Origin: Perna viridis
Lineage: Eukaryota
Direction of reading: 5' to 3'
Assembly: GCA_037379345.1 (NCBI GenBank)
Contig: CM074512.1
Coordinates: forward strand, 59,417,597-59,481,596
Length of the DNA: 64,000 nucleotides
Part shown: in pieces, positions 8,519 to 59,056 of the stretch
How the letters are laid out: each line of letters begins with the position of its first letter
Numbering within the stretch: position 1 is the first letter of the stretch
Translations under genes and position numbers: made by a program
Notes under the pieces: model-generated
Told to the model about the DNA's origin: nothing
Seen by the model: the letters and a program-made list of their open reading frames with translations, nothing else
The model's database searches: none

Positions 8519-9224
8519 TTTCGGGTATTTGATAAATCGCATCTCCCCAAAAGAACGAGAAAAAGGATGTTACAGACACTGTGAAGTCAGCTTCATATCT
8601 TGACCAACACTTAGAAATCAATGGTAAAGGAAAACTATTGACCAAACTATTCTACAAACGCGATGACTTTTCATTCCGTATTGTCAACTTCCCTTTCATC
8701 TGTTGCAACATCCCTTCAGCCTTGGTATGGAGTTTTAATATCACACATCACGTTATGCCAGAGCTTGCCGTAACTACGCAGACTTTTTGTATCGTGATAG
8801 ACTTCTTAAAATTAGTCTTCCGGATCAGGGTTATGTTGCTACAAGATTGAAGTCACCGCTACAGAAGTTTTATGCTCGTCATAATGAAATTGTGGATCGT
8901 TACAGCGAATTCATTTGCACCATGAAAACTGATTTGTTCAGCGTATCAGTTTCTTTCCTTTTTCTACCCCAGAATTAACTTTTTATTAGCAACTCGATGG
9001 GTCTTTCTAGAAGGGGCAAGGGACGCTTACCCTACCGCTGCACCTGTTCCATGCTCCTAGATTTTAGTGAATCCGAGTTGCTCATTTAGTTTTGTTACTT
9101 TGTATGTATTATTTTGGTTATTTTATTTCTTTGTTGTGTGTGTCTGTTTTCCATGTCTGGTCTTTGTCCCTTGATTATATTCTTTTGATTTCCACTAGAA
9201 TCGAGGTCCCCTTTATTACTCTTT
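8519..9224 (+). mobile_element. Naiad PLE family A 3' fragment
   Basis: KSASYLDQHLEINGKGKLLTKLFYKRDDFSFRIVNFPF; 3' UTR ends ...TTATTACTCTTT. Confidence 0.9.
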
Positions 9225-11989: not shown

Positions 11990-13718
11990 AAATCATATTT
12001 AATACCTTCTGGACTAATATCTATGAAACAGTTGAACTCTGTGCATGCTTTCGTCATTACATTTAGTGATATTGTAAAATTATAGAATAATATCGGGTGA
12101 TATGCACTATTTAAATCAAACAATAAAAATATAAGATCTTCCAACATTGTTTGTCAAATAATTCATATCATAATGTTTTAGGGTTGCGGGCATGTACGTG
12201 GATCTTTGTAAATAAACTCGTGGTGTTATACTTTTCATTCATTTTTATTGATATTTAGGTGTATATGATTGACCCGATCATGTAATGATTTTACCAGACA
12301 AATGAATTATTGATTACGTCATCTTTTGGGAAAAATATTAATAGTATTTTGTAAAAAATGAAATTAAGTCGTAATTTACTTGTAGTAATTATTACTTTTT
12401 TATCCTTTTGATTACCGCTATAACATTGGTTCCCTTGTTATCATGAAATACAAATAGTACTTATGTAAATAAATGTTGTATTTAATTTATGACAACATAG
12501 AGTGTTTCTATGTCTTTCATTGTTATCAAGATAAGTAAAGAAAAAGACATGATTTTGGTGTATTAGTAGTGCTTTGTGTTTCCATCAGCTTGCAGAACTG
12601 CCACGGTATCTATGCTTGTGTTTAAAGTGTTATTTAGGACAAGTGGCTGATTTGATCTCGGTATATAACATATATAGACGCGTGACTGACTTGATCTTGG
12701 TGCTTGGTTTTAAATGTTATCATTAGGTAGAGTAACTGTCAAGATTTTTATGCTTGGTCCGAAACGTTTTCACCAAGACGAATGACTGTCAATATCATTA
12801 TTCTTAGGCAAATTATTTAAGTTTCCACTGGCATAAACGTAATGTTCACATTTACGGTTTTTAGTTAAATATATAATATGTATCCCTAGCAAATTGTAAA
12901 TTCGTTTGAATTAAAATATTTTGCAATGTCTAACCCACAAGAGAATTTATACTTCTGTAAAGGATGGCTTAATTTGTATTTTCAGTTAAGTATGAATAAA
13001 AATACTTTCCAGGTTTCTTTTTTTATTTTACTTATAAAGATTTCCATATTCATAATCTGTTCAAAAACTCTACAAACTCTTTAATTCATTGCGCATAGAA
13101 AACGTTTTCAATTTGAGTATTTCACCTGCTCATTTAAAACTGGTCTCAGTATGAATAAAATGCTCATTCCCAACGTATCAAAACTGTAAAAAATCACTTA
13201 TTTGGTGAATACGGGCACTTGGTATATTGTTTTGCATTCATAGTTTTGCTAGTAAAAAAGTGAATTTACAAAAATTCAGTTTGTCTTTTTCATTCAGTAT
13301 TATTTTGTTTATAATACATATTCCATATTTTAAACAAGTTTTTTTGTCGACTTTTTGATATCATAGCCGAGAAATTTAAAAACTATACTGGAATTGTGTG
13401 ATACATAAATATCTTTAGTGTGAATGTTCACGTTGTATAAGTGGGTTAATTATTTTGGATAATTTAAACGCTTAACAACTAAACAACTGCTTGCATGAAT
13501 ATTGTCAATTTTTTTTAAATACCAATCACATGTGAAGATGAAGAAAAACTTTAATTCAGAAATTCACCTTTTTTCGCGTACGATAAGTAATTATCGTCAC
13601 TATATAATTGATACTCAAGCGACTTGAAAGAGTAATCAAGGGAACCAAGGTTATAGCGGTAATCAAAAGAATGTAATCCAGGAACAAAGACCAGACATGG
13701 AAAACAGACATTCACAAT

Positions 13719-15555
13719 TTTTATGGTCCACAATCTCTTCTTTGGAGAGAGTGGTAGCAGTGTAGGTCCTACCACTGCTATTATTTTCTACGTCTACCTC
13801 TGATCATAAACATTGGATATAAAACGTTTTGCAGACAAGAACAATGTTGTTTTGGGCTTTGTTTGCTGGTACGACAACATACTTGTCATGTATAGTAGAC
13901 AATGTTTTTGCTACATCGGGATCTTTGAAAACTGATGTAGCCTTGGCACTCATTGACCTACTTAAAACCTTCATTCGTTTCAAAATTAAAGACATCACTG
14001 CCTTTAACCACTCTGACAGAGAATCAATGTCTTCTTGTTCTCGTTTTACCCATTTTCTTGCATAGTCCTTGACGGCATCCATAAGAACTTTAAAGTTATA
14101 ATTCCAATTTATGGAGCGTGGTTCACGGTACTTGGGACCTTTAGAAAGGATATTACGCAGAGATTCGTTTTCGATAATGGTTAAATCTCCCGTAACGACG
14201 TGACCAGAAGGACCATATTTGAATGGAGAGGTTTTGCAAGAACAGTCATGTGGTTTAGCCTTGAAGTCTTCAATCTCGAGGTTCTGCAATAGCCTTTTTT
14301 AATTGACAATTTTAGATGCGATGGGTGAAGTATAGGAATATGAAATAATTGGTATGGATTTGTCTTTGAAATATGGGGGAATTTTGTTGGTAACGTTTTT
14401 GTGATGGAGGATGTTAGCCAAATTAATTGCATCTATACCTTTGTTGACAAACGGTAGTGGAAGAAATTATCGTTTTTCTTCATCTTGACTTTTCACACAA
14501 ACTGGTTTAAAGAGTCTGTGGAAACCAATATCCAAAATGATGGCAACAAGTCTGTATAATGATGACGTGGGGTCAGAAACAGGAGTGTCAAGACTTGTTT
14601 TTTAAAGGGAGTGTAGTAGAGTGAGAGGTATTGAATAAAGTTTGGTTCTAATGTGATGAAGTCCAAGAGGTTTTTGTATGAAAGGAAGGAGACCATCTAT
14701 GGAGACATCATGTAACTTAGGTGACGTATAGTGGCGATGACCATGACTCCTTTCCCGTCTTGGATTTTTGTCAAATAAATTCATCACATTTATGTTATTG
14801 TTATATTGGCTTGAAAGGTTTTCTATACTTTTGATGTTATCATTGCATCCGTAAGATATTGCAGTACCTAGTCTGCCTATCCAGTACTCCTCTCTTTCCC
14901 TACGATAGTTTTTACTGAGAACGGGACTGTTCGTAGGATGGTAAATTTTTTTTCTAAAATACGAACTTTCTTGTTGATTAAGTGTTGATAAATTGTCGGG
15001 AATTTGGTGGTGTTAATTTCCGAACGATGACCGCACATTCTTTTATTTAATCGTTCTTGCGTTTCTCCGACATATATTAAACCACATAAGTTGCATTCTA
15101 ATCCATATATTAAGTTTGTTGATTTGCAACTTAAGTCATCGTGACTTCTTGTGTGGAAGGTTTTGTTTGTAAGGGAACTGGACAAGTAAGGGTCGGTTAT
15201 AAGAATGTTGCATGTTTTGCAATTTTTAATACCACATTTTGATATGGTACAATGTGGTTCGTCATTGTTGTAGTCAAATATATCGTTTAAAGTGATGGAA
15301 CATGGTTTGATAATTTTAAAATAGTCAGAATTTTTGTACTGGAATAGATGGTCTGCAGACTGAACGTGTGTGGGTACTTTTAGTTGAATTGGTCGAGGCA
15401 CTTTCCATACCAGATTTGAGTGTGCTAAGATTCCCATCTGGGGACACCACATACTTACAAGACAACAGAGTGTCCGATCTGCTGTCAAGTTCGGACCTTT
15501 TTATACTGGGCAACGTCCGAGCCAGGGTTTCTTTCATTCTTCTTGTTAAAACCAT
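13719..15555 (-). pseudogene. Frameshifted Naiad ORF: N-terminal GIY-YIG endonuclease, CxC linker, start of RT
   Basis: Start MVLTRR at 15555; CKSTNLIYGLECNLCGLIYVGETQERLNKRMCGHRS...QH (GIY-YIG with CCHH-type residues); KPHDCSCKTSPFKYGPSGHVVTGDL; KGPKYREP; VVVPANKAQNNIVLVCK. Confidence 0.9.
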
Positions 15556-15574
15556 TAATTTTAAAAATTGTATT

Positions 15575-15636
15575 ACTGGGTTGATGATACCCTCGGGGAG
15601 AAAATCCACCAGCAGAGGTATCGACCCAGTGGTGTT
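15575..15636 (-). ncRNA. Putative structured cis RNA at the 5' start of the Naiad element (function unknown)
   Basis: Sense strand ACUGGGUCGAUACCUCUGCUGGUGGAUUUUCUCCCCGAGGGUAUCAUCAACCCAGU with stems ACUGGGU/ACCCAGU, GAUACC/GGUAUC and GGA/UCC; diverged second copy at 58915-58975. Confidence 0.5.
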
Positions 15637-17779
15637 AAAGAGTAATCAAGGGAACCAAGGTTATAGCGGTAATCAAAAGAATGTAATCCAGGGACAAAGA
15701 CCAGACATGGAAAACAGACATTCACAACAAAGAACACAAAGTAACTAAAATCATACATACAAAGTAATAAAAGTAAATGAGCAACTCGGACTCCACTAAA
15801 AACTGGGAGCATGGACCAGGTGAACCGGTAGGGTGAGCGTCCTCTGCTTTTTTAGAAACACGCGCCGAGTTGCTCATAAAAAGTCAAGTCTGGGGTAGAC
15901 AAACGAGGAAAGGAAAACTATGACCCGTTGAATACATCAGTTTTCATGGTGCTGATGGATACACCAAAACGATCCATGAGTTCATGATGACGACCATAAA
16001 ACTTCTGTAGTGATGACTGGAAACACTGGGATATTGAACTGCTTGGTGGTACCTATGTATAATGAGTTTCTTCATTTGAAAAATCTTACAGTAACTAAGA
16101 CGTTCTAACCATCTGAGTAACAAAAATCGGTGGAGTTTAAAAACGATAATACTGAGAAAGAATCTGAGATATTCCTTTCGTCATAAAATGGCTGATTGAA
16201 GTACAACGTAGAACCCCGAGTCTATTCGTTGCAGTCAAGTAAATAAGTTGTTTCTTTATTTACATTGTATATTGAATTATAACTTTACGTTGTTAAATGC
16301 AATTTATCAAATTTGCCTCTCGATTTTCTTTTGTAGTATTATTGAGCGTAATTTATGTGCGTTTCCCAAACTCGAATCGGTTTACACGCTCCTTGCCAAT
16401 TAATTTCAACGATTTGAGATGACCTTTGTATACGTGATGAATAGAAATTTCGGAAAAACTACTTTCTTAAGATGCAAGGAAGTAATTTCGAATATTAAAA
16501 TGCTGTAAAAAAGCGAGGAGGCAATTTAGTTAATGCAAAACAGCAAATATACAATTCTGGAATTAAAGTAATTGCTGCGGAAGATGCAATATTGTATCTA
16601 CTTTCATTCGGAACGATAATTCAACAATAAACTTGTTTGAGATGAAATCTACACAACAATTGCTTTGACATATCCTGCGTCTAGACCTCAATTATAGATG
16701 AATTATTGTACAGTGATTTCAACGATAAATAAGGGACTTTTAGAAATTCTTCACTTCTGTTCCTTAAAAGTATTGCTAAAAGCAAACTTTTAAGTGGTCT
16801 GTATGTCTTTCTTAAGCAGACAAAATTACCTTCCACAATATTAATGTAGTCTAGAATATTCAGAACAGCGGGTATTTTACTGATCACAGATGATCAGATC
16901 CTTCGAACAAGGTGAAGGTAAACTTTTTGAAATTTTAAGTAATACAGGTAAAAATAAAAAGTTGGATAAATGAGATCAAAGTAATTAAGAACAAAGGATT
17001 CATAATTAGAGCCTGTGTTAAGTGACTTTTGAAATATGACTACTCTTAAATAAACCGTGGATATTTTTCAGGATATTTTTTTTTCTGAACTTTTGAATAC
17101 ATGAAGTAGCCATCGAGTGTGATTTTTGTTTCATTTTCACAGATTTTTTATACTCTGAATACATGAGAGTAGTAATTTTGTATGATAATATTATTCTGTT
17201 TTTATTTGAATATTTATATGATGGTAGACTCGTATTTTTTTTTTTCATTTGTTCAGAAATTCCAATAGTGTGATCTTGGTAAAGTACTGTTTTTTTATAG
17301 TGACAAGGTCTTGTATTTTGTTTTTCCCTAGGCGTTTCTAGTTCTACCTTGCTGAATTCGCACTTGTTTAAATTCATTTTCCCCGTTTTTTTCCTCTTTT
17401 TTCTGGCATAAGCCACTCAATTATCTTGAAAGGAGTAAATTGTTTTGGGCTTCAAAAGAACAAAAATATTGTTCATATGTTTATTGTTTATTATTAAGCA
17501 TCATACAGCATGAAAATAACAATATACAAAACATCTTGAACACAAAAATATCAAACATTATCAGCACTATACATTGACACAAAATTTTAATACAATGTTT
17601 ATCCAAGTTTCAACAGGTGGGAGACTGCGTCAGTGTAGTGGTACACCTCGATCTGCCCTTGTTGAAGTATGTCTTTCAGCTGAATGAGTCGGTTGTCTAT
17701 GGTCCGGTGCTTGAGTTTCCTCGTCTTGTGTTTATTCCCTGCAGCATACTGTATCATGCCGATGAAATGTTAAACATTC

Positions 17780-25788: not shown

Positions 25789-26957
25789 GTAAGTGAATAT
25801 TTGTTCTAGACTTGTATTTCATATTTCCCATGGAAATTATTGTCCCTTTAAATGAATAATTAAACAGGTACACCCAAAAAAATGACATCGAATTATTATG
25901 ATGTTGAAACTTAATGAAACTATCGTAATAAAACTTTGTACCTATAGAGTTAGTTTCAGTTCATCAAATGTTAGTTTGAAACAGGGTGGAATATTTGTGA
26001 GTACACTACCTAAATATGGCAGTTTTTACTTGATTATAAGTGACCTTTTTGTTAAATCTACTCGGGCCTTATTGATAAATCTCTAGGCCAAAGTCAAGGT
26101 CAGGCTTGATGTATTTTTTTAAATTGTACATTCTTAACGGGTGTTGTTGCGTAATTATTCAACTGTCCGAAAAAAGTATGATTTTGGTTTTTAAAAAAAT
26201 GATTTTTTATAGCAGTTTTTTTTTTAATAGTTTTAAATGCACATTGTCTAAACCATGTGGATATGTTTATGTTAAAGTATGCACTCTCATGAAAACGTCT
26301 AAATTCATCTACCAGGAATAAAGACGAAATCCCTTGTAAATTATAATACATCGACTTTAAAAATAAGTCGTAATAACGAGTCAATATTGCCGTATAACGC
26401 AAAAAAAGTTATAATGAGACTAATCAACTTTCGTTCAACAGACAAAAAAAAATGTTTTCCTCGGTTTTTTTTTCATGAATGGGGTTTAGAAAACATATAA
26501 AAGAATATAATAAATTGCTTGTTAACAAGATAAAGCATCGACAAAAAGCTCAGCATAGTTATAGTGGAAGCAATCTGAATATTTATGATCAGGCTTTTTT
26601 GGGGATTTGAATAGACTTCTCCAAGATAAGATGTTTTGGGTGACAACATTGTTAGTACAAAACTAACTTCAAGTATAGGTGCGCTTAGTTCAAGGTTTTT
26701 GTTTTGGTGTTATTGAGCAAAAATGCTAAAATTTTTGTTGTCTTTTCAATAACTGCAGTGTCAGCTCATAAGTGTTTTAATAAGGATCGATGTTCTGAAA
26801 ACGTACTTATATTCTCTACATTTGCCTCAGAAGGTTGACTTGTTAACAAAGAAGAATAGCTTTAATGGCATTTATGATAATTTGTCAACACTCTTTCAAA
26901 TGAATTATTACAAGGCTCAATTTAACTTTGTAATTAATATATGTGTTTATTTTATAG

Positions 26958-29900
26958 AAAAGGTTTTCTTCGTGTAAATCTACTATTTAAACATGGGGCA
27001 CAGGTGATGAGGGGTGATATCAATGTTTCAAAGACAGTGCCAAACTTTCAAATCATGGAGGAAAAGAACAAAAGTATGCAAGGAAATCGGCAGACAACGC
27101 TTATAACAGCAACATTACAAACCGCTGATATAAAAGCTGGAGTAATAGTCATGTCCGAAAACGAAACAGATACCCTAACTAATATATTTGATAAAGCGCT
27201 GGAACGTAATATTTCTGATTACCAAGAGAAAGATCATACGGTACCAGGTGACAAATTCTTAGCCCAGTTCAACTTGTCAAGGGTTGATTTTAGATCTATA
27301 TCGATAGACCAAGAGGGAAATTCTTCCTCTACATACGATGCACCATTTCCAGACAATGAACGTGATACACAATTAATGGATATAAAGCAGACTAGAAATT
27401 CATCGATATTTCACTACTTGGATCTCGACTTCGATCTAGATAATAATGACACAAGTCAGAACTTATCAACAAAATTTCTAGAGAATTCTTTTTCAAAATC
27501 ATATAATGCAACAAAAAATGCAGCGAAAAGTTTAGATTTGAAAGACATAAAACAAAATGTTGCCCCTCTTGTCAAAGGTTCTTATTTTGATATGAACTTA
27601 TCCAAAATTAAAAACAACTCCTCATTAAACATTTTTCAAAAGATACCTAGGCGATTGACTAGATTAAAAGACGCTTCCATCGGTTTAAAAAGAAAATCAC
27701 TGACGCACAACAACAGTGACAATTTTGAAGCAAAAAACTGGTTATTGGATGGTGTATTGGAAAACAAAACAAAACATAATAGTGATAGTCTTGACGTTCA
27801 TGTTTTGTACAGCAATAGTAGACTGGAATTAGGAGACGGTGAAACAATTGAAAATGTAGTCGAGGAGAATGGGACCAAAACTTTTTCATCCCGTTTGTCG
27901 AAGGATTTGAAGAAAAGTGGCAAAACAAGTTTTACAAATCCAGCGATAAAAACGTTGTTTGTGTTGAACAAATCAGCAAATTTCAATGCAGAGATTAAAA
28001 GTTCGAAAAGACTATTTCAGAATATGTCGGAAAAAGGGACATCAAATTTACCATCAATCAAACTAAATAAGGAAACAAAAGATTCTAAACCTGAAGACAT
28101 GTTTAATGTAACATTTTCACAACCGTCTCGTTTGTTAACAATAACCAAGGAAATATTTCCTGTGTCTAAAGTCATGAATATAACAAATCAAGAACTATTG
28201 AAAAAGACACGTACAAAAACGTCCGATAAAAGTGGAGGGTTTTCATTACTTCAGAATTTTAGTTCTTTAGCTTCGTTGAAATTGGATAATGTGGCAGCAA
28301 TTGATAATGGAACATTAATGAGCAGTAAAAAAATAACGAGTTTTGAAACTAAAAGTGACAGAATTAAGACCGGGAATCAAAATTTGACTTCTTCGGAGGT
28401 TTCAAAACATATATATTTGAATACAACATTAAAAAGTGGAGAAGTGTCGCAAACAATAGCAAAACCGGAAAATGGCAAATTTGAGAAAAACTACATCTAT
28501 AGAGAAGTCTCATTTGTTGCTACTCCAGATGAATATAATTTTATCAAAAATGTTATCGACAAGAACCTGATTGACACTGCAGAGAATATTGATTCCAATA
28601 CTAATTTCGGTAAGGTTACCAACAAATCAAACACTTCAGAAAAAAATATAGGTGATAATTTAATCATTAATACGACCGTAACTGTGAATTTATCTGAAGT
28701 TAAATATCTAAATGTCAGTAATACGAGTACATTAGCGTCGGATTCCTTAAACACATTGACCTCAGATACATTAGGTGTTGTTGAAATTGTAAACGCATCA
28801 ACGCCAAATGAAACCAATTATATGGCTTCTCAGTTCGTCTTAAGGGAAACAAATGCTAGTGATGTCAAACAAATGCAAAATTTCAACGCATCACATGCTC
28901 CTCAATTTTTGAAAAGTGAATATAACCTAGAAAAAATCGTCAACAATAATACTTCCAATGTTAATGCAACATCCATCGAAAACGAAAATGAAGTTAATAA
29001 TACAAATATTTCAAAAATAGACGTTAAAAATGTGATAAAGAATCGGTATACAGGGACTTCAACTCTGCAACATAATATATTACATGCAACTTCAAATCCT
29101 GAAAATATTTTATCATATGATATGCTAAAGCAACACCATAAGATAAAAGTGGCAGTATCATCCACCAACAAAAGGAATTACAATTCAACAAAAAATCCTG
29201 TTGAAACAACAAAATATGCTTTGTCAAATGAAATACCTCTGATAAATTTGAGAACAAACGTTTTGTCATATGATATGAATTCTCCAAGCATGCTGATGAA
29301 TGTTACAACAAATGATGACAATATTTCTTATACATCAGGTGTAACAAAAACGGATGTTACTCACTTCAAAACTGCAATAGATGATCAGGCCCTGAATATC
29401 ACAACAACAAATGTGACGGCATTTGATTCAAGTCAAAATATCACTTCAACCAACAACAGAACCAATGATGTTACTCATTATAACATCTCAACAAAGATTA
29501 CTATAAAGAATATACAACATTCAGCTGGTGCAAACATTTCAATTAATTCCAGGGATGGGTATCTTCATAATACCTCAAGAAACAAAACAAAAACATATGT
29601 GACTCTTGAAAGTGCTTTAAATATCACGCCCAAGGTCGTAAGCGCTGCTTTCACTGCATTATACGTTACGACAAATGCCGTGACCGACAAAATCAATTCA
29701 ACAAATGTCACGTCAAATGATGTGAACTTAGTTAACAAATCAACAAACGTGACATCTAATGAAGTAATTCATGCTATCACTTCAACGAAGGACATAACCA
29801 AATCTATGACTCTTGATAATACTTCGAGAAACGTAAGTACGAATGAAGTAACTTTAAAAAACGTTACAGGAAATGGTGTATTGGGTCTTGGAAACACTTC

Positions 29901-31911
29901 CACAAACGTTCCGACCTATGATTTACCTTTTAATTTCACTATACCCAAGCAAACAACAAATAGCGTGAATCGTGATAATAAACAAATAAATGTTTTTGGA
30001 AGTGGCAAGAGTCTGTCTGACAGTATGATAAACATGACTGCATCCGATGTTTCTTACTTTACAAAGAAAAGAAGTGAATGGAATGCCACATTTTTAAAGA
30101 CGTTGACCTATCAAAGCAATGCAATCAAGGAAACAAAAAATGATGTTTTCTATGACAACGCTTCGACAAACGTAACTACGGATGATATGATTTCTGTTAA
30201 CACTGACGCAAATGTTTCAACAGATGATATTCTTATCAATAACACTTCAACGAATGTTACTATGATACTTCTAAGCAATTCAACAACAATTACAGAGCAT
30301 GATGATATGATTATTAAATCTTCAACAAACTTTACAACAAATTATATACCTCATGAAGGCACTCAATTAAATGTTACGATAGAAGATATGCTCTTGCAAA
30401 AAACTTCTACAAACTTAATGGCAGATGATGCGATTTTGAAATACCCTTCTACAAACATTTCCAGAGATGATATACTATTAACAAATATTTCTGCACAAAG
30501 TGCAACGGAATATACAGCAACTGAAACCATAATGTTGAATGGAGTTGTTGGTGTCAACTCTACAACGACCAATACGTCGAACAATATGTTTATAAACTTC
30601 ACCACGGGTAACGAAACATCAAATGGTGTGTCTCCGTTTGAAACTATGTTTAATATTACATCATATAAAGATGATATGGTGAACTTTTCTGTACAACCGA
30701 CCAAAGAAATACATTTGTTAGCAAAGAAAAAACATTCAATTGATACATTAGTTAATACTGTACTGGTAGCTGCTCCAATCGATAAGATAATTGCAGCAAA
30801 TGTTGGATGGTCTGACGATCATGGAAATAATTCAAGTCTTTTTAACTCAACAGAAGCAAAAGGAAAAGATATTTCTATCACAGAAAATACGAATGCAATG
30901 GAAACACCTACTCACATAACAAGAGAAAGGGGAAGCGATTTAACGACTGGAGGTTCATTAATAACAGCTAGCACTACAATTATGGGTAATTTATCTGTAA
31001 ATACTAACACTTTAACGGATGAAACAACAATCGATGGAACTAAAGGGAATGCATCATTCACAACTGAAGTCCCTACAAATATATGGTCATTCGTAACAAC
31101 GACAGCTGCAAAGAAAAGGAAGCCCTTTATAACTCAAATAACGGAAGGACAATATCTTGTTACAAAACCTCAAACGACAGATAGATCGTCGGTCACGTCA
31201 AACACACAATCGACAAATGAGGTGTCTGAACCATCTGTTACCACTAAAACATATTTGACAGGTGGCCAATATGTCACAACAAACGCCCCAACGAAAGGTG
31301 TATCATCTGTAACAACAAAAACTCCAGTGACAGATGGGTTATCTATCACAACAAACACGGTAACGACAGGTCGATCGTCTGTCACAACAAACACTGCAAG
31401 GACAGGTTGGTCATCTGCTACATCTAAAGAGTTTATGAATGTTGAGTCATCTGTTATATCTAAAGAGTTTATGAATGGTGAGTCATATGTCACAACAAAC
31501 ACTCCAACGAAAGTTGTGTCGTCTGTCACAATAAACACTCCATCGACAAACATTCTAACGACAAGTGGGCATTCTGTCTCAACAAACACTCCCAAAACAA
31601 GTGGGGCGTCCGTCACAACAAATGGTGCAATGACAGGTGGGTCATCTGCATTAACTAAGACTTCTATGACAAAAGAGTCATCTCTAACGACTAAATCTTT
31701 TAAGACAAAAGGGCATTTAACGACTAACGCTTTATCGTATATACAGCCAACAGAAACTAGCATACTACAAGCAACTTTATCTAGACTAAATGCCGAAGCT
31801 CTCCAGTCATCTAACGTAAGAGGATTAAATTCTGGAACTAATAGCTTCTTTCTGTTTGATGTCAATTTACTGGGAAAACATGGCTTACCCTTAAATTTCG
31901 AACAAAAATAG
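26958..31911 (+). CDS. Type II mucin-like gene, giant terminal exon: about 1650 aa Asn/Thr/Ser-rich ectodomain
   Basis: A 4.95-kb open frame in AT-rich DNA; acceptor TTTATAG|A is phase-compatible; no Cys; dozens of N-x-S/T sequons; 14-aa and 12-aa degenerate repeats; AATAAA at 32193. Confidence 0.9.
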
Positions 31912-33619: not shown

Positions 33620-34315
33620 AAGGGTAATCAAGGAAACAAGATTATAAAAAGAATGAAATCTAGGAACAAAGACCAGACATTGAAAACGCACACAGCAAAG
33701 AACATAAAATAACCAAAATAATACATACAAAGTAACAAAAGTAAATGAGCAACTCGTACTCCACTAAAAACTGGGAGCATGGATCAGATCAACCAGTAGG
33801 GTAAGCGTCCTCTGTGTGTTTCTAGAAACACCCGCAGAGTTGCTCATGAAAAGTCAAATCCAGGGTAGACAAAAGAGGAAAGGAAAACTATGACATGTTG
33901 AACAAATCAGTTTTCATAGAGCAGATAAATACACCGTAAATATCCACGAGTTCATGATGACGACCATAAAACTTCTGTAGTGATGATTTCAATCTTGTAG
34001 CAACATAACCCTGTTCCAGAAGCCTAATTGTAAGGGATCCAGTGCGATACAAAAAGTCTCGGCAAGCTCTGGCATAACGTATGAGTTGTGATATGAAAAC
34101 TCCATACGCAGGTGTTAAAGGGGTGTTGCCACAGATGAAAGGAAAGTTGACAATACGGGAAAAGTCATTGCGTTTGTCGCATAGTTTGGTCAATAGTTTT
34201 TTACCATCGATCTCTAAGTGTACCTCAAGATATGAGGCTGACTTCACAATGTCTGTAATATTCTTTATCTCAAGTTATTTGTAGATGTGATGTATAAAGT
34301 CCCCGAAACTAGGAT
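33620..34315 (-). mobile_element. Naiad PLE family A 3' fragment
   Basis: KSASYLEVHLEIDGK...AYGVFISQLIRYARAC...LKSSLQKFYGRHHELV followed by the family 3' UTR. Confidence 0.9.
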
Positions 34316-44330: not shown

Positions 44331-45675
44331 GACTATATACTCTGCAAGGTGCATATGTAACAATAGAATAAAATGCAATTACATGTACATATTTAAAACT
44401 GTAGATAAGGAAAACAAGACAAGGGAGTCCTATAACTATTTCAATCCATGTACATTTAATAACTTATTGTGTGTGAAATGACAATTATGTTGCAGTGGTT
44501 TTAATTAAGTCTAGAATACGAATTTAGTATACTGCAGAGATGAGATTTGATGGAAATGTGTAATATAATTGTAACATAAATGCATGTAAGATATATCACC
44601 GGACATTTATTTGACTTACTTGAAGAACTTAGGTGAAATATTTCTGGATTTCATGCACAGCTTTATGAAACACTTGGTGACTTTATTATTTTTTTTTAAA
44701 TTTTCAAGACCGTAAGCCTGTACGTATATGAAAGTTATCCCAACCCCCATTTACTATATGTACACAAGAAACATCTACTGGAAGGATGCTACTACTGATC
44801 AGTGGCTATGTTCACTCTAAGATCATAGAAGTATTTTAATTTGTGAATTCTCCTCGGGACAATTGTTTCTGGAGAGGCAAGGAAACTTACAAATGTAAGC
44901 CTTATACACTCTTGGTGTGCACCAACCATGAAAATTGAATATAATGTGTTGCATCTAAAAAAGTGAATAAAAAAAGCCTGAAAAAAAACGTACAATTATC
45001 GACCAATATACATGTACTCCATGATTCATAGTATGACTGCATGAATGTGTGTCTCTTTCTAGCGGCTATATATACATGTAGATGTCTGGTTTTTATTATT
45101 TTTTTTTGTTTTTTGTTTGTGTTTTGTTTTGCTTAGTTGTTTTTTGTTTGTTTGTTTGTTTGTTAAAATGAATATGATACTGTCAAGTTAATTATTGATA
45201 TAAGTAATTTAGATGTGTTTTAAAAAAATGATTCAATAGGCTGATTGGTGGAATTATCTTCCTTTAAGTGTTTTATTTTTAGCATGTGCTTCATATTTGA
45301 AATTTTATCAAAAATATTATTTTTCTCCATACAATAATCTTCTCGCTCCTTGTGAGCTCAAGACTGTTCATGTTTATGATAAGATGGCACATAAATGTTT
45401 GATGTAATCAACAAAATACATGTAGTGTTAAATTTATGGATGAGCATTTCTTGTAAATATTGGTGTCTTTAAATTATTTTTTTTCCACTAATTATTCTCT
45501 TTTTGGAAGGAATAAGTGATTCGTTTCTATATCTGTTTGTTGCTCTGTTTGATTTTGTTCTATTGCAATGCAGTCATTTTTTTCATTTCTCCCAGTTTCA
45601 TTCTCAGCTTATTGTAACATACATGTACCGTAGATGATCATTCTATATTTCTATTTTTTTATTTACAGGTATAAA

Positions 45676-46737
45676 ATGGGTGCGTTGCTAAGTACTGGTA
45701 TAAAACATGATCGAACCACCTATACTGATAGAAAGAAAGAAACAAGCTCTGCGGAATGGCCGACTGACAAGTGCATAACTTTGACACTCGATTTGTATTT
45801 CCCTAGAAAGTCTCTGTACACTACAAACACATACTACCAGTATTATATCGGACAACTCGGTTATTATCATTTCTTTGATTTATATCTTGAATTATGCGGA
45901 ATACTCATTGGCGGGCAGTGTGATGTTGAAGATGAATGTGATTTTGAATGGAATTCGTTCCGCAATTTTCTTGGAAAAAGCTATAATCATGTAGATATCT
46001 TAACATCAAAAAACTTCCTTGAAACAACTGTAATGCGTTATGTTCGTGTTGGTATAAATTTTGGAGAAGATCTCGACGAATTAGTTTTTCGTAACGACGA
46101 GGAAAAACGACGATTAGAAGAATTTGGAAAAATAGGGAGCAAACTCTTGAAGTATCCAGTTCATGGACAGCAACTGTTTTGTACAATAAAAACGGGTGAT
46201 ATGTACACTGCTACATTTATGAAGTTTCCTTTTATGACAGAGGTATTTAATCATTTAGGCCTCTCTACCAAGTCATCAATTATGTCGACCATGGAGGCTA
46301 GACTTAAAACTTGCAAACGCTTACAGAATACATACGATGCCAGCGTTGAAGACTTTGCCTATAACTTGGCTGAAGCTGGGTTGTATTTAACAACTGATGA
46401 AATTCTTTCTCAGTGTTTCGACTGTGGGGGACTTGTAAATATAGGAAAATGTGATTTTGATCCATGGAAGGTTCATGCTAAATATCACCCATGTTGTCCT
46501 TATTTATTGAAAATGAAAGGTCAAGATTATGTTGATAGAATTCGAAGAGATTTCAAAGAACAAGTAGACATTAATCCACGGTGTATTCTACAGTTCGACA
46601 ATCGGTGGCATGCACCAGACACGGAAGATGACGATTTAGACAGTAACTGGACGGAGTCAGCATCAGATTGCAGTGATTATTATTCCGAAAACGGTGAAGA
46701 CGATGACGACGAAGACGATCATGATGACGAGTTTTGA
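45676..46737 (+). CDS. Single-BIR IAP-family protein (353 aa) with N-myristoylation motif and acidic tail, no RING
   Basis: Acceptor TTTACAG just upstream of the ATG; MGALLS; EARLKT...LAEAGLY...C-x2-C-x16-H-x6-C (CFDC...DPWKVHAKYHPCCPYL); D/E-rich C-terminus. Confidence 0.88.
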   Translation: MGALLSTGIKHDRTTYTDRKKETSSAEWPTDKCITLTLDLYFPRKSLYTTNTYYQYYIGQLGYYHFFDLYLELCGILIGGQCDVEDECDFEWNSFRNFLGKSYNHVDILTSKNFLETTVMRYVRVGINFGEDLDELVFRNDEEKRRLEEFGKIGSKLLKYPVHGQQLFCTIKTGDMYTATFMKFPFMTEVFNHLGLSTKSSIMSTMEARLKTCKRLQNTYDASVEDFAYNLAEAGLYLTTDEILSQCFDCGGLVNIGKCDFDPWKVHAKYHPCCPYLLKMKGQDYVDRIRRDFKEQVDINPRCILQFDNRWHAPDTEDDDLDSNWTESASDCSDYYSENGEDDDDEDDHDDEF

Positions 46738-53289: not shown

Positions 53290-53740
53290 TATAAATGCAC
53301 ATTAAATGACCACCAATAGATTAACAATTTGATATGCACGTAATTTTATGTGCATCGATGATCACGCATGTGTTTTTTTTAAAGCATAGATAACATACAT
53401 TTATAATGCATACAATTAGATATGCTTCAAACAGGGACCACATGGGATTGCTCGCACTCTCAAATATGCATCCCACTAGTATATCCACGAAAGGTGTGAT
53501 CCCAGATTGGGGATGCCTCCGTCTAACTCATTTAAAAAAAACGCAGATTCATGTATCACTATTTACTGCTCAACAATCACCTGATAAATGACGAATCTAA
53601 TGCATAAACACATGGATCACCATCAAAGATTTCTAGTTAAATCAACACAATGATTTGAACATTCAAACTCCATATTTCCACACTCGCTTGGACCGAAAAT
53701 GAAACAAAATCGATCTTGACATCGCAAGACAGACAATAGA

Positions 53741-54525
53741 AAAAGTAATCAAAGGAAGCAAGGTTCTTGCGGAAATCAAAAGAATTTAATCCAGGGACAA
53801 AACCAGACATGGTAATCAGTCACACACAACTAAGAACATAAAATAACCAAAATAATACGTATAAAGTAACAAAAGTAAATGAGCATCTCGGGCCCCACTA
53901 AAAACTGGGAGCATGAACCAGATATGCAGCGGTGGGGTAAGCGTCCTCTGCTTTTCTAGAAACACCAGCCGATTTACTCATAAAAAGTCAAGTTCGGGGT
54001 AGAAAGAGGAAAGGAAAACTATGACACGTTGAACAAATCAGTTTTCATGGTGCAGATAGATACACCGTAATGATCCACGAGTCTATGACGACGACCTTAA
54101 AACTCCTGTAGTGGTGACTTGTAGCAATATAATCCTGTTCCAGAAGCCTAATTGTAAAAATTCTAGCGCGATACAAAAAGTCGGCGTAGTTACGGCAAGC
54201 TCTGGCATAACGTATATGAAAACTCCATACACAGGTGTTAAAGGGATGTTTCCACAGATGAAAGGAAAGTTGACAATACGGAATGAAAAGTCATCGCGTT
54301 TGTCGTATAGTTTGGTCGGTAGTTTTCCTTTACCATCGATCTAGAGATAGATCAAGATATGATGCTGACTTCACAGTGTCTAGTATCCTTTACCTAAAGT
54401 TCTTTTGGGTAGATGCGATGTATCAAACCCCGGAAATTAGGATCCTTCTTTTGGATCAGATCAGCTATGAAGTTAGACTCGTAAGAGTGAAAGAATTGGT
54501 CAGCAAGTAGTGGGGCACAAATTGT
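53741..54525 (-). mobile_element. Naiad PLE family A 3' fragment
   Basis: Reverse complement of the RT C-terminus and family 3' UTR (GGTAAGCGTCCTCTGCTTTTCTAGAAAC). Confidence 0.88.
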
Positions 54526-58615: not shown

Positions 58616-58914
58616 CTGACATTGATACATTGAAATAATTAACAAATCAAAAAAAAAAAAAACAAGCATAGAAATATTGAAAATTTCAATATTCTGTACA
58701 CCTGTTTCAAGGAGTAACCTCTTATTAGTTGCTTTAGAATAAAATTTGTAGGAAGATCTAAATCCAAAAACTAATTATATAAAAGAAGTACTCACAACCG
58801 AAGCTATCATATTAAAAGGTCAAATCCATCCCATATTCAGTACAAGGAATGAAGCCTCAGTGTTTTTTTTTCAAATTTTGATTAATAATTTATGATACAA
58901 ATCAGGGTCTGACT

Positions 58915-58975
58915 ACTGGGTTGGTGAATATACCCTTGGTGTCCTTTGATCCACCAGCAGTGGCATCAACCCAGT
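58915..58975 (-). ncRNA. Solo diverged copy of the Naiad 5' structured motif, in a DNAH2 intron
   Basis: ACUGGGUUGAUGCCACUGCUGGUGGA...AGGGUAU..UCACCAACCCAGU aligns with 15575-15630. Confidence 0.55.
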
Positions 58976-59056
58976 GATTATTAAGCATTAAAATAATTTA
59001 CACACAAGGGTAAGTTCAGTATCTACAAGGGTTAAGTCCAGAAACTGTTCTTGTGA

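Follow-up and report, generated by a model that had tools for sequence, protein, structure and literature searches.

A 56-nt nested stem-loop lies on the minus strand at positions 15575-15630 of the window (the whole 64,000-nt stretch of Perna viridis DNA that was analysed), at the tandem junction of a decayed Naiad, a Penelope-like element. The evidence supports this motif as a conserved sense-strand RNA structure, absent from Rfam and tied to the positions where Naiad copies end, which supports the end-defining role suspected in an earlier note on this DNA. By analogy with a better studied Penelope-like element, the motif probably recruits the Naiad reverse transcriptase by binding it and fixes, just upstream, the internal point at which target-primed copying starts. 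Penelope-like reverse transcriptases are the sisters of telomerase, and the sole in vitro study of how they select a template and a start site located a region and no conserved fold; a 56-nt structure with natural compensatory variants is a directly testable candidate for the start signal. The proposed role would account for the sharp ends of Naiad copies and for the occurrence of full copies as partial tandems, and would name Naiad as the likely helper of the abundant ribozyme circles of bivalves. The motif would also allow an inexpensive cleavage assay of what may be a new ribozyme.

The motif at the Naiad junction

In order, the window locus has a pseudo-LTR of 385 nt followed by the motif; then come the first 1945 nt of the Naiad unit, a deletion and the last 91 nt of the unit. 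The features are as follows.

15637..16018, minus strand: pseudo-LTR, a 5'-truncated upstream copy holding the last 385 nt of the 3409-nt unit, 94% identical to the L061 unit
15631..15642, minus strand: U/AC-rich junction; insertions of the family end in the zone 15642-15635
15575..15630, minus strand: motif, from sequence and folding, with pairing across species judged by eye
15630-15624 with 15581-15575, minus strand: motif stem P1, separated from P2 by a small internal loop
15622-15617 with 15591-15586, minus strand: motif stem P2, followed by a variable bulge and a 2-bp CU/AG
Motif core, minus strand: conserved loop GCUGGU/CCG, then P3 (GGA/UCC) with a variable apical loop
13720..15555, minus strand: start of the decayed Naiad ORF, with ATG, Zn finger, N-terminal GIY-YIG, CxC and DKA; the unit is deleted after about position 1945
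13621..13717, minus strand: Naiad 3' end after the internal deletion; the motif does not follow

The sequence quoted in the earlier note corresponds to 15575-15636 on the minus strand and adjoins the family end ...TTACTCTTT at 15637, and the Naiad ATG at 15555 lies 20 nt downstream of the motif. The motif is thus present at the tandem junction and folds as nested stems, as had been claimed, with a z-score of -2.92 on the sense strand; since the antisense strand gave -4.78, the strand is not decided by folding energy alone. AACACC does occur at the junction in the window, but it and UUUUCUCCCC are private changes: 59 of 81 junctions read CTCTTTCACACCA, and the TAA form was found in only two. 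Nor is the tandem copy a single one, as was first thought, for the genome has many, including arrays with a 3409-nt period. One such region of genome G000 (contig C3, 46.03-46.08 Mb; L061 and L062) holds at least 16 full-length head-to-tail units of 3409 nt with frameshifts common to the units.

From its sequence, the host element can be assigned to Naiad as the clade is defined in the text of PMC8557442. The 3409-nt unit of the array copy has a GIY-YIG domain at the N terminus with an upstream Zn finger and CCHH, followed by CxC, DKA and a C-terminal reverse transcriptase; its length falls within 3.4-4.4 kb, and partial tandems are formed. All these features are shared with the described clade, as is the lack of a canonical hammerhead, which the earlier note had rightly stated: CUGAnGA occurs on neither strand of the 3409-nt unit. 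The Pfam GIY-YIG match of the window copy (E 0.0076) is below the cut-off, and that of another copy (L011) is at the cut-off.

A 24-nt pattern of the motif gave 186 matches in genome G000 versus none for the reversed control, so the motif is not due to chance; such copy counts are based on sequence patterns and may miss divergent copies. The Rfam comparison proposed in the earlier note assigned the motif to no known family: in the window no match reached the gathering score, and only chance-level matches appeared at relaxed E-values (up to 10). No description of the motif was found in the literature, although the supplements of PMC7229834 and of a 2026 bioRxiv preprint could hold one.

Some further pieces of the element were observed. 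A second conserved stretch, CGGGUG ... GCUYAC ... CACCUG, lies in the pseudo-LTR at about 15815-15875 (minus strand), some 200 nt before the 3' end, and by eye recurs in bivalve and hemichordate Naiad 3' ends. Three end fragments in the window (8519-9224, 33620-34315 and 53740-54443) are 84% identical and have nearly the same 5' boundary (unit positions 2682-2689), which suggests an older non-autonomous subfamily. A 36-nt end fragment is located at 12402-12437, and a 38-nt repeat of the terminal tail is present in contigs of four sequencing runs (L003, 1597-1634).

Conservation of the fold and comparison with known RNAs

A by-eye comparison took in the opening 200-280 nt of each of the 54 Naiad consensus sequences given in the PMC8557442 supplement. 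A strict form of the motif begins 13 of them, from bivalves, hemichordates and a fish (CGi, Sglo, Olur, Tgra, Pmar, Mcor, Mgal, Bpla, Mphi, Skow-1, Pfla-1, Pfla-2 and Cmel), and looser forms were seen in seven more (three near-identical Acropora sequences, Bfor, Chem-3, Scon and Ppla). No recognisable motif was present within about 200 nt of the start in the other 34, several of which are marked incomplete. The main text of PMC8557442 names no 5' structure ("stem-loop" and "hairpin" have no occurrence in it), yet the motif starts many of its consensus sequences.

Among the 13 strict carriers, pairing holds in 72 of 76 cells for P1 and in 72 of 78 for P2 (144 of 154 together), with both-sided changes at 9 of the 12 P1 and P2 positions; these are by-eye counts on sequences that are kin to one another, whose cells are non-independent. 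In P1, for example, ACUGGG/CCCAGU is replaced by ACCGAA/UUCGGU, ACCAAG/CUUGGU or ACUACG/CGUAGU. The two outer stems covary in this way around a nearly fixed core, CU-GCUGGU-GGA...UCC-CCG-AG, four of the 13 have an inserted hairpin at the bulge, and recurrent G-U pairs are workable on the sense strand only. In an alignment of 33 motif copies 93.8% of positions were paired, but 494 of 500 shuffles scored as high, and no covariation above shuffles was obtained; these copies are too alike for covariation, and the covariation claim is therefore based on the by-eye count of the consensus sequences. An alternative fold from RNAalifold, in which the core pairs with the 3' strand of P1, fails in homologues with a different P1.

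The search was extended to other variants and other sequence collections. Patterns for other Naiad motif variants gave one and zero matches in genome G000, so a further Naiad family carrying a divergent motif did not emerge. Viral contigs contained no match; a looser pattern left 4 of 120 after a crude stem filter, and these were not motif-like. Among the matches listed from metagenomes and prokaryote genomes most were due to chance, and the true motif was recognised in at least six AT-rich metagenome loci and in at least one genome-bin contig. One contig in a mussel-symbiont genome bin (L262) carries a tandem array, of about 74 nt per repeat, of the motif alone; it is probably host DNA and possibly an assembly artefact.

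Several pairings and likenesses raised in the earlier note did not survive the comparison. The proposed pairing of CACCA with UGGUG shows no covariation, ACCA/UGGU breaks in about half of the homologues (by eye), and only the AC just 5' of P1 is kept from ACCA. For the pairing of GAUUACUCUU with GAGGGUAUC, the upstream partner is by eye absent in other families. The twister-like UAA...GA pattern depends on a private change and, with the TAA form in only 2 of 81 junctions, is not a family feature; the antisense hammerhead-like UUGAUGA with GAAA likewise rests on private changes and occurs in 11 of 154 motif rows, duplicates included.

Known ribozyme classes were considered in turn and set aside. 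Twister ribozymes have conserved UAA/GA loops and two pseudoknots; here the UAA form is confined to the two junctions mentioned, and the Rfam twister model has no match. HDV-like ribozymes fold into a nested double pseudoknot whose P1 begins at the cut; the covarying helices of the motif are simply nested, the ACCA/UGGU pairing breaks as described above, and Rfam again gives no match. A hammerhead in any permutation contains a CUGAnGA block plus a GAAA block (PMC10085705), and the motif core reads CUGCUGG and CCGAG within a unit free of CUGAnGA. In twister-sister and TS-like ribozymes a conserved internal loop, 5 by 6, carries CA at the cut (PMC11620745), and the motif has a variable P1/P2 loop of about 2 by 5, a conserved GCUGGU/CCG without CA, and no Rfam match. 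An antisense SECIS or kink-turn reading is not kept in the sequence of the second motif-bearing family described below.

The motif could also act as DNA, either as an internal promoter or as a DNA structure read by the GIY-YIG nuclease to resolve the insertion end. The majority junction has TATAA 30 nt before an initiator-like TCACACC, and the second family has TATAAAA about 30 nt before P1; for the nuclease, PMC11167929 reports that the D. virilis Penelope nuclease needed the tail for recognition. However, the compensatory stem changes, and G-U pairs that form on the sense strand alone, speak for a folded single strand, by eye there is no TATA at such spacing in the oyster, ark-shell and pearl-oyster consensus ends, and inserted copies do not start at the motif. 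We consider a role as DNA unlikely.

A retrozyme family with the same motif, and predicted pseudoknots of Naiad

The second motif copy in the window belongs to another repeat, with the following features.

58649..58982, minus strand: decayed full-length copy belonging to family B, a retrozyme family with a 376-nt unit, at 69% identity to L344
58915..58975, minus strand: motif at the start of the retrozyme copy, with GAUGCC; model R1 included this copy when it was built
58697..58728, minus strand: remains of the type I hammerhead core, altered here and intact in other copies

The copy at 58915-58975 with GAUGCC exists as previously reported, but it heads a separate non-coding family and not a Naiad. 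Family B has a 376-nt non-coding unit, partial tandems and a type I hammerhead whose predicted cut lies 54 nt upstream of P1, and so agrees with the description of non-LTR retrozymes as tandem-forming non-coding units of 170-400 nt with a type I hammerhead. Its hammerhead core and stem I were identified by pattern and folding; Rfam did not detect this minimal hammerhead. The intact core pattern has 242 matches in genome G000 versus none in the control. The sequences of Naiad and family B are otherwise unrelated, the motif being their sole common part. In two metagenome loci (L118 and L169) hammerhead, tail and motif follow one another as they do in family B. Contigs of presumed RNA runs cover the 376-nt unit, though contigs cannot show circles.

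In the retrozyme literature, mussel retrozymes of 350-390 nt, similar to family B in size and ribozyme, accumulate as full circles (PMC7229834), and animal non-LTR retrozymes in general are tandem-forming and non-coding with a type I hammerhead, as family B is (PMC7229834; bioRxiv 10.64898/2026.07.22.740005). These papers propose Penelope-like elements in general as helpers, from pLTR likeness in frogs, whereas family B shares a specific cis-element with Naiad, and from this shared motif Naiad may be the helper of the family B retrozymes. A separate locus of genome G000 (L649-L657, contig C1, 47.448-47.450 Mb) is a 45-nt tandem array of the minimal hammerhead alone.

Downstream of its motif the Naiad has further predicted structures.

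15491..15525, minus strand: predicted pseudoknot 1, 15525-15522 with 15509-15506 and 15520-15515 with 15496-15491
15442..15486, minus strand: predicted pseudoknot 2, 15486-15478 with 15469-15461 and 15475-15470 with 15447-15442
15398..15441, minus strand: possible third pseudoknot in this Naiad family only, a weak prediction of 6 + 4 bp

Pseudoknots 1 and 2 lie inside the first 120 nt of the coding sequence and by eye covary in bivalve, hemichordate and fish Naiads, the stem variants of pseudoknot 1 being ACUGG/CCAGU, AGUGG/CCACU and UAGAG/CUCUA. As they are missing from the retrozyme, their role more likely lies in translation or in binding specific to Naiad. The last pseudoknot of several Naiads finishes at an in-frame CCN codon, the point from which protein likeness sets in, a geometry that resembles the dicistrovirus IRES, and several Naiads have no start codon.

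This arrangement bears on the possibility that the motif binds the Naiad protein for packaging, or serves RNA stability or translation, with the start site set by something nearby. Its place 20 nt before the ATG, ahead of the coding-start pseudoknots, and the Naiads without a start codon would fit such a function; against it, the non-coding retrozyme retains the motif without the pseudoknots, and its insertion end is separated from P1 by the same short distance. We regard this possibility as unlikely.

Copy ends and the proposed start of reverse transcription

Naiad ends had been described as sharp and free of poly(A), and all 30 unselected ends indeed stop 4-11 nt short of P1. Exact counts in the genome decrease from 11,391 for a 29-mer near the end to 8,622 with four more bases and to 71 when the sequence is extended up to P1; genomic 3' ends thus map immediately 5' of the motif, the pattern of internal initiation in Penelope-like elements. 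Retrozyme ends behave similarly: 27 of 30 stop before the motif and three run through it as tandems. Among 21 dispersed retrozyme copies picked by the hammerhead core, with nine rows from one 45-nt array omitted, none terminates at the cut, and 20, read partly by eye, extend into the tail of about 47 nt. Contigs of sequencing runs, which are uninformative on RNA ends, have loose ends 3-7 nt short of P1 that are interpreted as insertion ends.

For 5' boundaries, 60 copies were picked by the GIY-YIG region and two mis-anchored rows were dropped. The boundaries of the remaining 58 are smoothly spread; 15 copies reach P1 and one stops at its edge, which is the background level. Junction length is constant in 79 of 81 cases. 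With no pile-up of 5' ends and a fixed junction length, the inserted templates were continuous across the junction. The hammerhead site in family B also shows no sharp pile-up, so this continuity is also compatible with cleavage followed by ligation, but a circle made in that way would still need a start signal at the junction. Six independent motif-bearing copies (L045, L053, L057, L371, L380 and L400/L401) begin 29-31 nt before P1, just after TATAA (rough Poisson probability 6e-6, before correction for window number); this cluster, absent from the smaller set picked by GIY-YIG, is possibly a 30-40 bp tail or an RNA start.

The closest experimental parallel is the Poseidon element PAc, for which PMC11167929 describes an internal start in an AC-rich stem-loop at +111-118, a requirement for RNA up to +172, and no need for hammerhead cleavage. 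PAc, like Naiad, is a Penelope-like element with genomic 3' ends at an AC-rich site, it requires about 55-60 nt of downstream RNA, and hammerhead cleavage does not set its end, as appears to hold for the motif. It differs in belonging to another clade and, in that account, in having its region inside the ORF, two start sites and no defined conserved fold, whereas the Naiad motif is discrete, covarying, placed before the ATG and common to a non-coding repeat; the two are likened by geometry and not by sequence homology.

On this analogy the following mechanism is proposed. In tandem Naiads and retrozymes the motif stands at the junction, and their free 3' ends fall short of it. An RNA that is circular or results from read-through would keep end, junction and motif in one piece. 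The Naiad protein would bind the motif and nick AT-rich DNA, and cDNA would begin in the U/AC-rich stretch 5' of P1, with the zone 15642-15635 as the putative start zone in the window; the motif would consequently be left out of the insertion end. In the genome pattern, most copies truncate early, giving more than 11,000 end fragments, and the few long ones continue through the next motif into a pseudo-LTR. The hammerhead retrozyme may borrow the Naiad protein through the same signal.

The earlier note had instead proposed that the motif replaces the hammerhead by releasing unit-length RNA. This is not supported: a type I hammerhead coexists with the motif in retrozymes, only one of the 15 copies that reach the motif starts at its 5' edge, and the junction length is fixed; the motif beside a type I hammerhead is not simply a hammerhead replacement. 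In a broader form, the motif would be a new self-cleaving ribozyme, perhaps protein-assisted, with a cut close to its 5' edge, after which the unit RNA would be circularised or copied from the cut end. Several observations agree with this: an internal loop fixed between covarying stems, which is also typical of ribozyme cores; the conserved AC just 5' of P1; ends clustering 4-11 nt before P1; and the hammerhead flags, since none of the 13 strict carriers is flagged for a hammerhead core versus 18 of 54 overall, in keeping with replacement. Two of the 13 carry the annotation "no pLTR". In addition, PAc hammerhead cleavage required protein, as described in PMC11167929. However, the family B motif coexists with a hammerhead cutting 54 nt upstream, two looser-form Naiads (Bfor and Chem-3) are flagged HHR_core, 5' ends do not pile up at the motif edge while junctions are precise, no Rfam ribozyme matches even at E up to 10, and the mussel retrozymes cited above, which may carry the motif, accumulate as full circles. 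A self-cleaving ribozyme therefore seems to us to have a low probability. The HDV-like ribozymes of R2, L1Tc and RTE, as presented in PMC6765202, are likewise structured RNAs at a retroelement 5' start, downstream of the boundary; unlike them, the motif has no nested double pseudoknot and is preceded nearly always by element sequence instead of varying host DNA. The most far-reaching idea, quite improbable in our estimate, is that the motif represents a novel class of RNA, self-cleaving and religating and retained from ctenophores to fish, which circularises Naiad RNA, also places a telomerase-related reverse transcriptase in position, and heads a multi-pseudoknot RNA domain.

Apart from these repeats, the window contains on the plus strand, at 45634-46737, an open frame of 367 aa that includes a single BIR (inhibitor of apoptosis) domain, and a Thr/Asn/Ser-rich open frame of 1657 aa at 26938-31911, by composition a mucin-like exon.
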